From sequence record NZ_CP129890.1: DNA of 46,212 bases; one strand, given 5' to 3'. Shown here piece by piece: positions 2,469 through 37,158 of the stretch. This DNA is from a plasmid. The stretch's first letter is position 1; every line of letters begins with the position of its first letter. The position numbers and the translations under genes are program-made. The notes beneath the pieces are model-generated. The model ran no database searches. It was not told where the DNA came from and saw only the letters and a program-made list of their open reading frames with translations.

Positions 2469-2993
2469 GGATTGAGCAAGAAGTTTTAAGGGCGGTGGCT
2501 GTCTTTTCCCTTGTGAGGTGAGGCCCATGGGAACATGGAATAATCTTCAGGAAGGTTTCACAGTCAATGAGCGTCTTCCAGACACTCTCGTTGATGTTGC
2601 TGTTTGGCACGTTTTTAATCGCGCTACTCAGCTATATCGACAAGCACCACAAATAAAAAAGCCGCCCTGCGTAACTTTGGTAGGTTACAGGGCGAACTAG
2701 TGTCGTTTTAATATCTGCCACCGCCTTTGAAGCGGCTTGCATGGGAAGTCCTGTTTTCGGCGGGGCTTCCTTTTCTGTTTCTATTATAGCATGTCCTTTA
2801 AAAACTGGCTAACGTTTCATGCTTCGAGATAGCGTCAACCTGCCAAAGTTGAGACGGTTATTTTCAACCATTAATCAAGTAAAACGTTGATTTCATAAGA
2901 TTTGAGGAAAGCAATGCTTCAAAGGTAAACTAAATAAACCTCTTGAAACGTTAATTTTTCAAGATGCTATACTGTCTTCATAGGCTGTATGAG

Positions 2994-3873
2994 TTACTGT
3001 CTTGGTTGAGACACAGTTGGCTCATAACCTTCATTGTTCAAAACTAGGTGGAATATCGTTCTATTTAGACGACTCATAACCGTAACTGCAATCTTCTTGG
3101 TCCCCTTAGACTGAAAGGATTGCTTTTTCATTTGGTAGAAGTCGTTAAAGCGTGTCGGTCGGTATGAGGAAGCGCTGATGATATTGATGACCGTACGATA
3201 CAAGACCTTCCTTGCCAAAGGGTTCCCACGTTTTCGAATATGCTGCTCGGCCGTATAGTCCCCGGATTGGTAAGTAGTTAAATCAACACCAATGTACGCG
3301 TTAATGGCATTGGCACTATGAGATCGCCGAATATCGCCTAATTCCGCGATAATACATAACGTTGATTTAAGCGCAATCCCAGGAATTGTCATTAAAATTG
3401 CAACCTCTGGCAAGCTTGTACCAATTTTAGCCATCTCTTCAATATAAAGATTTTTTTAAGCGGTCGAGACGTTCAACTTCATAAGTTAACTCGGTAACTC
3501 GCTTGAGCGCGTATGAATCAATATCTAATGCTGGTCCAGAGCTCTTGGCCAACTCCAGGAGATGTTCAGCTAAATGCTGAGCCCGTTTGAGGCCCATATT
3601 CTTTGGAGTAGCTTCCAATATAATTGATGTTAATTCAGTGGAACTACGTTGTAACACCAAATGTGGGTGCGGGAATTTCTGGACAATGTGTCAGTATAAG
3701 GAACCTTCGGTCCTACTTAGAAAATGTTCTATTTCCGGGAAAGTAAGCTGTAAAGCGTCCGAAATGGACACAAGGCTACTCTTTTCATTTGGTATCGTGG
3801 TACGCTGGCTTTTACACCATAAGCACCACCTCCAATCTACGGAAGTCGCCACCGCCTTTAACTTTTCTGCCAT
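2994..3873 (-). pseudogene. IS110-family transposase, C-terminal ~60% only, broken into three frames
   Basis: ORFs 3691..3873, 3439..3660 and 2994..3434 align collinearly with residues ~150-409 of the intact IS110-family protein at 28826..30055 (ALQLTFPEIEHFL~LIQLSFPGIEEELDL; MTIPGIALKSTLCIIAELGDIRRS~LSIPNIAENTAVRLVAELGDIRRF). The N-terminal DEDD domain is absent. Confidence 0.7.
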
Positions 3874-4105
3874 GTTTAGTATAGTATATAAACGTCTTTG
3901 TTCCTAGAGGTACAAGGCATACAGCCATATTGCTATCGCAAAAAGACCTCTTCGGCCGAGAAACGTGGGACGCCTGCCCCGCCCACGCGCTTCGGGCATC
4001 TGCCTGTCGCGAGGATTCAATCCGACCTCGGCAACATGATGCAACGGAACGGCAAAACCCAGCCGTTCTCGTTGCCAGCTCGACTGAAACCCAGCAGGTA
4101 GGGCA

Positions 4106-33732: not shown

Positions 33733-34884
33733 TCAAGTGCAACGATGATAACGAATTCTTGATAGTGGTCTAGGCTGTTACGCCATGCATCGGTAGTAAT
33801 CGCATGGGCGAAGATAGTTCAGAATACGTCTGGGACGATGGTTCAGTGCGGATTGGACTGCTTGAATTTCAACCAGGGTAACTGCTCTGAGAGACTTCCC
33901 TTTCGGGAAGAATTCCCTAAGCAGTCCATTGGCGTTCTCGTTTGTGCCACGCTCCCAAGGCGAGTACGGATGTGCGAAGTAAATCTGGGTTCCAACAATC
34001 TCTGATAACTTGGCAAACTCGGAACCATTGTCAAAAGTGATACTCTCAAATTCCTTGGCCCCGTAGTCGTCGATCGTGTCCTGCAAGGCTTTAAGGCAGG
34101 TGTCCGCATGATAGTCAGGAATCTTGACGATGATCTCAGTCCGGCTGTACCGTTCTGTGAGCGTCATTAATGCTGGCTCATCAGCTAAGCGAATACCTTT
34201 GACCAAGTCGCCTTCCCAATGTCCCACGCCTGTGCGGTCATTCACGTCCGCAGGACGCAACTCGATTGAGTCGCCGTATATCTTCTTATTCTTGCGCTTG
34301 TGGGCGTTCTTATAGCCTTTGATGCGGCATCGGAGCTTCTTGGGAAGTGTCATGTTGTCTAGCTCAAGCAGCCCGGCGTCGATGTAGCGATACACAGTTG
34401 TCGTTGAAGGGCAAGCCTTGCCCTGGTCGCGATAGAAGTGTACGAAGCTATCAACGCTGTGTACGCGCGGCTTACGAGTAAGCTCCCTGGCGAGAGCCTT
34501 GAAGAACGCACGGCCGGTCTTAAGAAAGGCGTAGTGACCGGTTCTATCGCGTTTACGGTCGTGCATGGCTTGGGCAGTTTCCGCAAGATAGACTTGATGC
34601 GAGTGACGCTTCGAGTCGAGCTGAGTTACAGATCCACGCGTGATTTCTCGTGAGATTGTCGCTTTACTGCGATGAAGCTTCTGTGCAATCACGGTCGCGG
34701 TGTCACCAGCAGCCTGAAGGGCCTGAATTGTAGCACGGTCGCTAAAACTGAGTTGTTGGTAATGCTTGTGGGTGTTAGTCTGAGAGTGGGTCATGAAGAT
34801 TCCTGCTTTCTTGTTTAGCTAGCACTAACAAGAATAGGTCTTCATGGCCTTTATGGTCTAGTCGTCAGGGTGTTGCACTTGAAT
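33733..34884 (-). mobile_element. Second, distinct IS30-family insertion sequence (about 1.15 kb)
   Basis: Terminal inverted repeat core tcaagtgcaac (33734..33744) / gttgcacttga (34872..34882). 338-aa IS30-type transposase inside. Confidence 0.55.
33778..34794 (-). CDS. IS30-family transposase (338 aa)
   Basis: N-terminal HTH LSFSDRATIQALQAAGDTATVIAQKLHRSKATISREI. DDE core DFESITFDNGSEF...YSPWERGTNEN. Confidence 0.8.
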   Translation of the reverse strand: MTHSQTNTHKHYQQLSFSDRATIQALQAAGDTATVIAQKLHRSKATISREITRGSVTQLDSKRHSHQVYLAETAQAMHDRKRDRTGHYAFLKTGRAFFKALARELTRKPRVHSVDSFVHFYRDQGKACPSTTTVYRYIDAGLLELDNMTLPKKLRCRIKGYKNAHKRKNKKIYGDSIELRPADVNDRTGVGHWEGDLVKGIRLADEPALMTLTERYSRTEIIVKIPDYHADTCLKALQDTIDDYGAKEFESITFDNGSEFAKLSEIVGTQIYFAHPYSPWERGTNENANGLLREFFPKGKSLRAVTLVEIQAVQSALNHRPRRILNYLRPCDYYRCMA

Positions 34885-34909: not shown

Positions 34910-35605
34910 TTATTTTGTTTTGTTGATGGAATTGGAGTTTAGATTATTTTTTAATTTTTCCATATCCAAGTCTTTGCCTATAGGGTCCTGATAATCAATC
35001 TTTAAGCCAAACACCTTTATTTTTCCGGCTATAGTTTGATGCATAAAGTACATATAGACTGGCTTTCTATTAACAAAGTTCTTTAATGCCCTACGATTGT
35101 CACTTAGTCTCTGGTCAATATGATTCAGAAATTCTTTCCTGTCAATAACGATGGGGCGTACTTCATGACTTTTGATTGAAAAAAAATTGAGCTTTTGGCG
35201 TTCTTTATCATCTTGAATATCTATCATTTGGTCATAAGGAAATATTTTGTCAGCATATTTAGTATGTTTAATCAACCAGGGTAGCAACATCTTTCTATAA
35301 CAGTAGTTCTTTTTTGTTGTAACTAATATTCCCATGAAACGAGAGGACTCGGTTCCAAGGCTGTCATTATATACTGTAATAGTGGTTTTAAAATCATGCG
35401 TAGGAGATGAATATTCGAATTGTTGAAGTAACTTTTTATGATTATTTCTTGTAAAAGCCAATAAGGCCACACCGAATGATAACCAACCAACTGATATATG
35501 AGTGCTAGTCCAGTGTAGAACAGCAAAAACTAATTTCCATGCCTGGCCTATAAAAATCGTTATATTTTCCCACATTATAAAATCTTCTTTCAAATTTATT
35601 TTCAT
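34910..35605 (-). CDS. AT-rich hypothetical protein with an N-terminal transmembrane region
   Basis: 231 aa. ~30% GC, much lower than the surrounding DNA. Hydrophobic N-terminus (ITIFIGQAWKLVFAVLHW...VGWLSFGVALLAF). No recognisable domain. Confidence 0.5.
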   Translation of the reverse strand: MKINLKEDFIMWENITIFIGQAWKLVFAVLHWTSTHISVGWLSFGVALLAFTRNNHKKLLQQFEYSSPTHDFKTTITVYNDSLGTESSRFMGILVTTKKNYCYRKMLLPWLIKHTKYADKIFPYDQMIDIQDDKERQKLNFFSIKSHEVRPIVIDRKEFLNHIDQRLSDNRRALKNFVNRKPVYMYFMHQTIAGKIKVFGLKIDYQDPIGKDLDMEKLKNNLNSNSINKTK

Positions 35606-35861
35606 TATTATGAAGCTTATCTAGTGCTCAATTATTCTATGTCAAGAATATTGTAAAACCTCCTTTCAGAATCCGTCTACGTTCTATTAGTAATATAAGG
35701 ATTAACCTTAGAATTAATCTTTTTAAATTGGTTCTCACTAGTAATATAGCGATCAAGCGAATTTGTTTTAAAGCTTGGATTGGATGTAAGCCGAGCTGAC
35801 ATATTTTGTGACAGATTAATAGAATTTCCCAGCAATTTATCATTTTATTTCTTAAAAATCC

Positions 35862-35890
35862 TTGACACTTCCACTGGGATTATGTATGTT
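35862..35890 (+). promoter_or_regulatory. Sigma70-like promoter of the cysK-ctl-cysE operon (TTGACA-17-TATGTT)
   Basis: TTGACA 35862..35867, 17-nt spacer, TATGTT 35885..35890. Confidence 0.5.
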
Positions 35891-35921
35891 TATGGCAACA
35901 AAAAATTTCGGAGGTGTCACT

Positions 35922-35996
35922 ATGACTCAATCAATGTTTAATGCGATTAATTGTTGCTGTCGAACAACGCGTTTTTGGCGATGTTCGGCCTGTTAG
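35922..35996 (+). CDS. Candidate Cys-rich leader peptide (24 aa) MTQSMFNAINCCCRTTRFWRCSAC
   Basis: SD GGAGG 35910..35914, 7 nt before ATG 35922. Codons 11-13 are TGT-TGC-TGT (35952..35960). Two more Cys at codons 21 and 24. Stop TAG 35994..35996. Located between the promoter and the intrinsic terminator. Confidence 0.45.
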   Translation: MTQSMFNAINCCCRTTRFWRCSAC

Positions 35997-36063
35997 CATT
36001 GACATTTTTTGAGGAATAATGACCTTAAAGAAGTTCAATGTCCACTTGGCTGGAATTGAACTA

Positions 36064-36106
36064 AGGGCGCGAGAATTCTGATTTTTCAGAGTTTCGCGCC
36101 CTTTTT
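36064..36106 (+). terminator. Leader intrinsic terminator (attenuator) upstream of cysK
   Basis: agggcgcgagaattctg-atttt-cagagtttcgcgccc followed by ttttt. Preceded by an 8-bp-stem hairpin agttcaat...attgaact (36032..36062). About 100 nt before the cysK start. Confidence 0.6.
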
Positions 36107-36205
36107 CTATTCACTGCAGCCAACCGGCCATTTAACATCGCCAAAGATCATCTTTCCTGAATCGCAGTCTAACAGCTAAAACAACTATTCAGAAAGGATC
36201 TTACC

Positions 36206-37117
36206 ATGCTTATTCAATCCGTTTCCCAACTCATTGGCCATACCCCGATGATCGACCTACAAATTAACGTTCCTCACCACAGTCATATTTACGCCAAACT
36301 TGAAATGTTTAATCCCGGCGGCAGCATCAAGGACCGCTTGGGTCAGTACATGATTCAAGACGCCATCGACCACGGTAAAGTGACTGAAGGAAAAACCACC
36401 ATTATTGAACCCACCGCCGGCAATACCGGCATTGGGGTGGCCCTGGCCGCCCAACAGCACCGCTTGCCAACTATCCTCGTCGTCCCTGAAAAGTTTAGTT
36501 TTGAAAAACAACAGCTGATGAAGGCTCTCGGGGCGACTCTCATCAACACGCCGAGCGACCAAGGAATCAAAGGCGCCATCCAAAAAGCGCGCGAGTTGGC
36601 AGCGAAGACCCCAAACAGTTTTGTGCCGATGCAGTTTGAAAATCCGGCTAATCCAGCGACTTATTACCACACCTTGGCGCCGGAGTTAGTAGCAGACGTC
36701 CCTGCTCAAATTAACGCGTTCGTTGCTGGCGCGGGCAGTGGCGGGACATTTGCCGGCATCGCCCGATATCTGAAAGAACAGAATTCAGCAACCCGGACCG
36801 TCGTCGTTGAACCCGAAGGCTCCATTCTAAATGGTGGCCCGGCTCATCTTCACAAAACGGAAGGGATTGGTGTCGAATTTATTCCGCCCTTCTTCAAAGA
36901 CGTCCAAATTGATGAAACCCTCACCATTTCTGACAACGACGCGTTTGATCAGGTTAAACAAATGGCCAAAACACAAGGGCTCTTCATTGGCAGTTCCAGC
37001 GGGGCCGCGTTAGCAGCTAGTCTTAAAGTAGCCAATGAATTGCCAGAAAACAGTTCAATCGTCACAGTTTTTCCAGACAGCAGCGAGCGTTACATGAGTG
37101 AAAACATTTACAACTAA
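36206..37117 (+). CDS. cysK: Cysteine synthase / O-acetylserine (thiol)-lyase family (PLP-dependent)
   Basis: PLP-binding [13 protein letters not shown] and GTGGT motifs. SD gaaagga. Confidence 0.85.
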
Positions 37118-37158
37118 TCAACTTAAATCTAACAACTAAAAAAGTGAGGTCAATGATT

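Follow-up and report, generated by a model that had tools for sequence, protein, structure and literature searches.

The leader of the cysK-ctl-cysE operon

We analysed a 46,212-nt stretch of plasmid DNA (record NZ_CP129890.1), referred to below as the window; coordinates are window positions. It carries the operon cysK-ctl-cysE, and between a promoter and cysK lies a leader that contains a short upstream open reading frame (uORF) with a run of three Cys codons, followed by an intrinsic terminator (Table 1). We propose, from comparisons between loci and from predicted RNA folds, that this leader is very probably a transcription attenuator of the classical ribosome-mediated type, with charged tRNA-Cys as its signal.

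The promoter matches the consensus at 10 of 12 positions, and 5 of the 24 residues of the leader peptide are Cys, two of them encoded outside the run, at codons 21 and 24. An earlier, sequence-only reading of this DNA had listed these parts: a canonical promoter (TTGACA-17-TATGTT), a strong Shine-Dalgarno (SD) sequence (GGAGG) spaced 7 nt from the ATG, a 24-codon ORF with TGT-TGC-TGT and the two further Cys codons, then a hairpin, an intrinsic terminator and about 100 nt to cysK. All are present where that reading had placed them; the hairpin has 12 bp, and the terminator has an 18-bp stem that ends 103 nt ahead of cysK. A simple terminator scan of the window returned 0 sites. It missed this one because a stem of ~18 bp is long for its criteria, and its result was set aside in favour of folding.

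Table 1. Positions of the leader elements, the operon and other features of the window
Feature	Position	Strand	Details
Sigma-70-type promoter	35862-35890	+	-35 box TTGACA (35862-35867), 17-nt spacer, -10 box TATGTT (35885-35890)
Leader SD	35910-35914	+	GGAGG, 7 nt ahead of the ATG at 35922
Leader ORF (uORF)	35922-35996	+	24 codons plus stop, MTQSMFNAINCCCRTTRFWRCSAC*; TAG at 35994-35996
Putative regulatory Cys run	35952-35960	+	TGT-TGC-TGT, codons 11-13
Helix P0, long-range	35912-36026	+	SD/AUG and first codons (35912-35944) pair with 35996-36026, just 3' of the uORF stop
Hairpin H1 (segments 1:2, anti-antiterminator)	35959-35989	+	GUCGAACAACGC / GCGAUGUUCGGC; 35959-35970 with 35978-35989; -16 kcal/mol
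Hairpin B	36032-36062	+	12 bp; both arms partner the uORF 3' region in the antiterminator state
Intrinsic terminator T	36063-36108	+	stem 36063-36081/36086-36103, 18 bp, -26.9 kcal/mol, then UUUUUCU
Antiterminator (AT) superhairpin	35968-36071	+	-43.5 kcal/mol; four pairings
AT pairing 1	35968-35978 with 36061-36071		CGCGUUUUUGG with CUAAGGGCGCG; terminator 5' arm plus three bases 5' of it
AT pairing 2	35979-35990 with 36048-36058		hairpin B 3' arm
AT pairing 3	35996-36002 with 36035-36041		hairpin B 5' arm
AT pairing 4	36005-36014 with 36023-36032
cysK-ctl-cysE operon, predicted to be regulated by the leader	36206-38866	+	annotated with Pfam
cysK	36206-37117	+	PALP (Pfam); cysteine synthase or cystathionine beta-synthase-like enzyme; ATG at 36206
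ctl	37144-38343	+	Cys_Met_Meta_PP (Pfam); Cys/Met-metabolism pyridoxal phosphate lyase
cysE	38309-38866	+	hexapeptide acetyltransferase (Pfam)
IS30-type transposase	33778-34794	-	HTH_38 plus rve; upstream of the operon
Truncated DDE transposase	39461-39838	+	downstream of the operon
GH1 6-phospho-beta-glucosidase	40755-42179	-	downstream of the operon
RatA	2696-2786	-	type I toxin-antitoxin antitoxin RNA; 53.7 bits, just over the Rfam gathering score
rli28	3706-3893	-	Listeria small RNA; 46.8 bits, just over the Rfam gathering score

Judged on this window alone, the Cys triplet is only weakly beyond chance: TGYTGYTGY occurs 9 times against 4.7 ± 2.3 expected, and this uORF is the only one with three consecutive Cys codons among the 86 SD-preceded short ORFs of the window. 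The significance of the run rests on comparison with other loci. A CysK protein scan with one genome per species gave 80 loci, and loci of E. faecalis and L. fermentum were fetched separately, from plasmid records. The complete architecture (TTGACA promoter, ribosome-binding site, in-frame ATG, 2-3 tandem Cys codons and terminator) was found in 22 of the 22 homologous loci examined. These span at least ten genera of Lactobacillaceae and Enterococcaceae, with representatives in Lacticaseibacillus, Lentilactobacillus, Secundilactobacillus, Lactiplantibacillus, Loigolactobacillus, Paucilactobacillus, Companilactobacillus, Limosilactobacillus, Oenococcus, Tetragenococcus and Enterococcus. Each of the 22 has, immediately ahead of its cysK homologue, a short ORF that follows an SD and contains two or three tandem Cys codons; only 2 more ORFs of this kind occur in their ~280 kb of strand sequence.

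In all scanned loci of Lactobacillaceae and Tetragenococcus, the SD-preceded ORF has 24-28 codons and lies 100-420 nt 5' of the cysK homologue; the plasmid-record loci have a similar ORF of 45 codons (E. faecalis) or 30 codons (L. fermentum). The tandem Cys run starts at codons 11-14 in the relatives and at codon 15 in E. faecalis. For the CysK homologues of Bacillales, Paenibacillus and Brevibacillus, neither such an ORF nor an Rfam element was found.

Outside the Cys run, the peptide sequence is not kept between genera. This can be seen from the leader peptides of L. plantarum (MTQLTSNALNNCCCRTARLLRCSAC), Loigolactobacillus (MLLAHTQLNNCCCGSRLTRPTDWCA), O. oeni (MVLAPAYLNSCCCEPRLTRFTGCCV), L. 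reuteri (MENNYFVNANICCCESRLMRLTFWYTHF), Tetragenococcus (MSQLIITLTDTCCRMSRLSDIGLICHEC) and E. faecalis (beginning MTKKQASPFLETESCCCMV...). The N-terminal 10-13 residues vary freely in sequence and length, by whole codons each time, and the run itself appears in synonymous versions (TGT-TGC-TGT, TGT-TGT-TGC, TGC-TGC-TGT and TGT-TGT-TGT). A frame-blind search of the 75 nt that precede the Cys run found exactly one SD-ATG in 15 of 16 leaders; in each of these 15, it is in frame with the run, with no intervening stop. The consistent frame, the interchange of TGT and TGC, and the whole-codon changes in N-terminal length indicate that the uORF is a coding sequence, more than an RNA motif. The sequence-only reading had suggested testing whether homologues keep the uORF, its SD and its Cys run while synonymous sites drift; all 22 loci keep them, with TGT and TGC interchanged and the rest of the peptide drifting. 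When the leader peptides were compared with Pfam and NCBIfam, no family matched.

The rest of the leader is conserved as well. Of 19 related leaders, 18 have a perfect TTGACA with a spacer of 16-18 nt, and ~30 nt separate the end of the -10 box from the uORF ATG. Two variants of the cluster are 91% identical in the leader, versus 77.7% overall; the conserved block extends from just 5' of the SD to just past the terminator, where identity collapses, and the uORF body is 100% identical. By these values, the leader is more strongly constrained than the genes.

Alternative structures of the leader RNA

The 219-nt leader folds at -80.9 kcal/mol, with z = -8.1 relative to dinucleotide shuffles. In the predicted terminator state it forms the long-range helix P0, the hairpins H1 and B, and the terminator T (Table 1). 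The 5' arm of H1 starts within the last Cys codon. Hairpin B shows compensatory changes in 4 of 9 pairs across 7 leaders, and RNAalifold reports such changes in H1 plus T at 8 of 31 predicted pairs in the long-leader family, to which the window belongs, and at 7 of 20 in the short-leader family. For P0, cognate duplexes average -15.5 kcal/mol versus -10.2 kcal/mol for non-cognate ones (nominal permutation p ~5e-5 among these related leaders). The model has P0 sequestering the leader's own ribosome-binding site. P0 may also allow only the first ribosome to translate the leader.

The two extra Cys codons (21 and 24) lie at 35982-35993, in the H1 3' arm and the antiterminator strand, and are missing from the short-leader relatives. 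Given this location in the H1 3' arm and their retention in the long-leader family only, they are probably a by-product of RNA-structure constraint, not additional sensors.

Hand-folding in the sequence-only reading had given no convincing antiterminator. We now find one at 35968-36071, conserved and covarying, and the mutually exclusive pairing that reading had thought worth seeking, between the Cys-proximal segment and the terminator 5' arm, is its first helix (Table 1). This superhairpin is incompatible with H1, B, T and part of P0. Before the 3' arm of T is made, the two folds are nearly isoenergetic (-56.1 versus -52.6 kcal/mol). Counting from the first base of the first Cys codon (Cys1), the stretch from Cys1+13 to the T 5' arm folds as one hairpin in 19 of 19 leaders, and the first paired base of the antiterminator falls at Cys1+13 to +16 in 16 of 16 representative leaders, with z between -2.6 and -6.6.

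Several lines of covariation connect the strands of this hairpin. When antiterminator partners were exchanged between leaders, the complementarity observed for cognate partners was never reached by shuffled assignments (nominal p ~5e-5). The loop of H1 differs by lineage, and in each lineage the bases preceding the terminator match it: UCUUA with GUAAGG in the short family, UCAAUUA with GUAAUUGG in L. fermentum, CCUCA with UGAGG in locus L012, and UUUGAG with CUCAAG in Tetragenococcus. When the short family is aligned with MAFFT, the antiterminator's base helix of 10 bp is 97.6% paired, with 3 compensatory pairs, compared to 28-50% in slid controls. In loci L014 and L043, one G-to-A change in the uORF is offset in its H1 partner, in its terminator 5' arm partner, and in the 3' arm partner of the latter, a chain that runs through columns 23-17, 17-115 and 115-145 of alignment A6 and so across all three alternative helices. 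Such triple compensation is what 1:2, 2:3 and 3:4 alternatives would be expected to leave.

A terminator is present in every relative. In locus L020 (Limosilactobacillus reuteri 105k; 2752-3000), an insert of ~190 nt from 'AAGGCG' onward replaces the native terminator with a different hairpin and U-tract, and cysK lies 176 nt farther away than in L018, a sister strain. Here the terminator has been exchanged naturally, and its overlap with the antiterminator is preserved. Two Secundilactobacillus loci (L005, 2774-3000; L006, 2780-3000) have ~220 nt extra, with a long inverted repeat, between terminator and cysK, which may represent an insertion or a further layer of regulation. At the E. faecalis locus (L083, NZ_CP143580; 2274-2411), the 45-codon uORF precedes a terminator and then cysK-like and cystathionine gamma-synthase genes, and the H1 3' arm pairs with the terminator 5' arm. 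This uORF is annotated as hypothetical protein WP_002355203.1, which is probably a Cys leader peptide.

Proposed switching mechanism and rival explanations

In the mechanism that we propose, transcription would start ~25 nt before the leader ORF, and a ribosome would load at GGAGG/ATG. With plentiful cysteine, this ribosome would cross the three Cys codons and reach the stop codon, and the 5' strand of the antiterminator would lie under the ribosome or be recaptured in H1. Hairpin B and then T would form, RNA polymerase would halt at ~36106, and P0 would additionally shut the leader's ribosome-binding site. Termination would be the default outcome for an untranslated leader too. With scarce Cys-tRNA, the ribosome would stall when the first or second Cys codon occupies its A site; the H1 5' arm would then lie under its footprint, and the strand starting at Cys1+13 to +16 would stay accessible. 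This strand could then pair with the emerging B 3' arm and T 5' arm to give one long antiterminator hairpin, T would be blocked, and cysK-ctl-cysE would be transcribed.

The anatomy of the leader, its conservation, the coding nature of the uORF, the covarying alternative structures, and the geometry of Cys run and antiterminator are observed here. That stalling at Cys codons selects between the two folds is the step we infer from the model. A ribosome that has Cys1 in its A site would be expected to protect ~12-13 nt downstream, and its edge would fall about where the antiterminator strand begins. When such a ribosome is imposed on the fold as a mask, uORF nucleotides capture the T 5' arm in 18 of 19 leaders; unmasked, the clean leaders of the long family form H1 and leave the terminator arm unpaired. 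A ribosome stalled at Cys would cover the base of the H1 5' arm and leave the antiterminator strand, and the antiterminator, with read-through, would therefore be favoured.

A number of results weigh against this mechanism or the evidence for it. The antiterminator is already the minimum-free-energy (MFE) fold of the ribosome-free truncated transcript in about half of all leaders, and thermodynamic folding does not separate the free and stalled states in many short-family leaders. Since thermodynamics fails to separate the states, the model relies on co-transcriptional kinetics, with H1 forming first. With the ribosome at the stop codon, the 9-11 bp base helix of the window's antiterminator is still possible in the MFE fold. 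For the long family, a covariance-model alignment of the antiterminator fold is strongly supportive (89.9% of cells paired, 15 of 41 pairs compensatory, 0/500 shuffles as good, slid controls 29-48%), but it is fitted to the structure and leans towards the model. On plain MAFFT (alignment A4), the base helix is 77% paired and 28/500 shuffles match it, which is not significant; a +2 slide on plain MAFFT gives 69% paired, owing to CGCG periodicity. RNAalifold did not recover the antiterminator from a MAFFT alignment of truncated long-family leaders, because the variable middle is misaligned. Finally, the permutation p-values above are not strict probabilities, as the sequences are phylogenetically related.

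Published expression data agree with attenuation in direction. RNA-seq of FAM18149, whose cluster is our locus L001 and whose leader is 91% identical to that of the window, showed cysK2-ctl1-cysE2 to be ~8-fold higher in cysteine-free than in methionine-free medium, with very high coverage of the operon's 5'-untranslated region and a pile-up of reads upstream of the terminator (PMC6004538). The authors noticed the rho-independent terminator, found neither a T-box nor an S-box, and described the regulatory mechanism of the operon as 'yet to be discovered' (Wuthrich et al. 2018, PMC6004538). That terminator corresponds to T, as does the 'palindromic motif' of Liu et al. 2012, to the extent that the latter is quoted in PMC6004538.

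The sequence-only reading had allowed for a riboswitch or a protein regulator in place of attenuation, and had itself seen no T-box or S-box features in the leader. Rfam scans of the window and of related loci agree on the latter point. At the gathering score, the whole window gave only RatA and rli28, none in the leader; at E <= 10, positions 35600-36300 gave no relevant match, T-box and SAM models included. Nothing was found at the leader in 40 related loci, and no family reached its gathering score there in 20 related loci. The leader is not a member of the T-box model RF00230, in the window or in related loci, and matches none of the existing Rfam leader models (Trp_leader, His_leader, Leu_leader, Thr_leader and the Leu/phe leader). 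The only T-boxes found are at L006 5802-6062 and L008 5691-5925, 2.7 kb away and downstream of the operon, and an FMN riboswitch is at L014 5160-5290; these lie ~2.2-2.9 kb 3' of the cysK start, outside the Cys leader, and control neighbouring genes.

The cysK-ctl-cysE module is 99.9% identical to a cluster on plasmids of L. paracasei and L. rhamnosus. Transposase genes lie on both sides of it (Table 1), and none of the Pfam-annotated neighbours of this module, flanked by insertion sequences (IS), is a regulator gene. The operon and its leader look like an IS-flanked mobile module without a linked regulator. A GH1 6-phospho-beta-glucosidase gene lies farther downstream, and the RatA and rli28 matches suggest a type I toxin-antitoxin locus on the plasmid.

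Could the switch be real and yet respond to a factor acting in trans (uncharged tRNA, an RNA-binding protein, or an RNA-bound metabolite, for instance cysteine or O-acetylserine), with the uORF incidental or only modulatory? Such operons are typically regulated by T-boxes or riboswitches in Firmicutes, the leader is highly structured, as its z of -8.1 indicates, and the sequence 3' of the Cys run is conserved beyond what might suffice for a simple attenuator, to the point that the uORF body is 100% identical in two variants. Yet no Rfam family lies at the leader (down to E = 10 in the window, and at the gathering score in 20 related loci), no regulator gene accompanies the module, an in-frame SD-ATG and a synonymously varying Cys run are kept at 22 of 22 loci while other residues drift, and the antiterminator starts at the predicted edge of a ribosome stalled at Cys1. 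We consider this explanation quite improbable. The uORF might instead act through translational coupling, Rho-dependent polarity or mRNA stability. Its counterparts in mycobacteria, the poly-Cys short ORFs (sORFs), affect translation and not termination (bioRxiv 10.1101/834739), and P0 does hide a ribosome-binding site; however, the site it covers is the leader's own SD, not that of cysK, which lies ~100 nt past the terminator and is unpaired with the Cys run. The strong intrinsic terminator of every relative, with a 5' arm that pairs with the Cys-proximal strand, also makes this account very improbable.

The two remaining explanations leave out any RNA switch, and we give each of them next to no credence. 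In one, a dimeric transcription factor of sulfur metabolism would bind the GC-rich palindrome at 36063-36103 as its DNA operator. The palindrome was first listed as a 'potential regulatory motif' by Liu et al. 2012 (quoted in PMC6004538), and this inverted repeat is conserved upstream of cystathionine synthase and lyase genes of lactobacilli. But it lies ~170 nt 3' of the conserved promoter, with a U-tract after it in every case, transcripts pile up upstream of it (PMC6004538), and it can pair alternatively with the uORF. Its loop varies in length and sequence, while the stem stays paired by means of G-U pairs and compensatory changes, both of which count only at the RNA level. The other would make the 24-residue peptide a functional small protein, metal- or redox-active, whose position is operonic and not regulatory. 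Its 5 Cys residues are compatible with this, as are the hypothetical-protein annotation of the E. faecalis version and one weak metallothionein-like match for a relative (E = 0.003, below cut-off). Apart from the Cys run, though, the peptide is unconserved between genera and belongs to no Pfam or NCBIfam family, and the C-terminal Cys residues, missing in the short family, coincide with RNA helices. Ribosome-mediated attenuation, the trpL/hisL-type proposal of the sequence-only reading, is the explanation supported by the conserved uORF and Cys run, the covarying antiterminator, the lack of an Rfam match and the direction of expression.

Relation to known attenuators

A full-text search of the literature on lactobacilli, Lactobacillales and Firmicutes, with subscription-only papers outside its scope, turned up no Cys leader peptide and no account of this uORF, its Cys run or the antiterminator. 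The proposed attenuator of cysK-ctl-cysE is apparently so far undescribed. With somewhat more reserve than for the mechanism itself, we think it probable that this leader founds a 'Cys leader' family not described before: an attenuator specific for cysteine, the first to have a complete classical terminator and antiterminator, widespread in Lactobacillaceae and Enterococcaceae, travelling with an IS-flanked plasmid module, in need of no dedicated regulator, and perhaps limited by P0 to a read-out by the first ribosome.

If true, the published view that the palindrome may be a transcription-factor site would give way to this one, and the mechanism question left explicitly open in 2018 would be answered. 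Whether lactobacilli of cheese and dairy can make cysteine from methionine and form sulfur flavour compounds depends on the cysK-ctl-cysE cluster, and the attenuator model explains the cluster's cysteine-responsive regulation simply. The cluster would stay regulated after horizontal transfer, because only ribosomes and tRNA-Cys are needed. Cysteine would join the short list of classically attenuated amino acids, and would do so in Firmicutes, where T-boxes are thought dominant. For annotators the leader offers a signature, by which, for example, the hypothetical protein WP_002355203.1 is probably a leader peptide, and the element could become a compact cysteine-responsive expression switch for lactic acid bacteria.

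Three sets of Cys-codon leaders are known from other bacteria. The mycobacterial polycysteine sORFs likewise place consecutive Cys codons before cysteine-biosynthesis genes, and stalling on them reports Cys-tRNA (Canestrari et al., 10.1101/834739). That study showed translational attenuation experimentally, and its authors knew of no earlier Cys attenuator (bioRxiv 10.1101/834739). The sORFs are leaderless, however, have their Cys run at the 3' end, act by exposing the SD of the gene that follows, and were shown to work without termination (10.1101/834739). The Cys leader has an SD and a 5' leader of ~25 nt, a run in the middle of its ORF and an intrinsic terminator, and falls outside that class. 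The Rhodobacterales element uORFC-8-2, upstream of cysS, is a predicted ribosome-mediated attenuator in which two adjacent Cys codons, at roughly positions 14-15, are followed by a terminator (Brewer et al. 2021, PMC8632094). It differs in occurring in Alphaproteobacteria, in controlling a Cys-tRNA synthetase gene and not biosynthesis, and in its unrelated sequence, and is itself predicted only (PMC8632094). Candidate Cys leaders of actinobacteria are also short ORFs with Cys runs before cys or cbs genes, but no terminators or antiterminators were found for them, and their mode of action was stated as unknown (Seliverstov et al. 2005, PMC1262725).

Cys-specific T-boxes, such as those of glnP2 on the L. 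paracasei FAM18149 plasmid and of C. perfringens cysK, belong to the same organisms and sulfur regulon, and there too low charging of tRNA-Cys relieves premature termination. In T-boxes, however, uncharged tRNA is read directly by RNA-RNA contacts and translation is not needed; the Cys leader has no T-box match. Classical attenuation does exist in Lactobacillales, in the Leu/Phe leader of Lactococcus lactis. That leader differs from the Cys leader in amino acid, operon and sequence, and the Cys leader has no Rfam match.

The closest likeness is to the enterobacterial attenuators trpL, hisL, pheL, thrL, leuL and ilvL. They share with the Cys leader a promoter-proximal SD and short ORF, a run of codons for the end product, and 1:2, 2:3 and 3:4 alternatives to an intrinsic terminator; in both, stalling would free the antiterminator, and termination is the predicted default without translation. 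As modelled, the Cys leader has every structural feature of leader-peptide attenuators: the SD-started short ORF, the cognate codon run, the downstream terminator, the mutually exclusive antiterminator and, for an assumed footprint size, the 1:2 stall geometry. It differs from the enterobacterial systems in sensing cysteine, in its hosts (Lactobacillales, Firmicutes), and in having no similarity to them by sequence or covariance model. It also adds hairpin B and a helix, P0, over its own SD, and its antiterminator is one very long composite hairpin.

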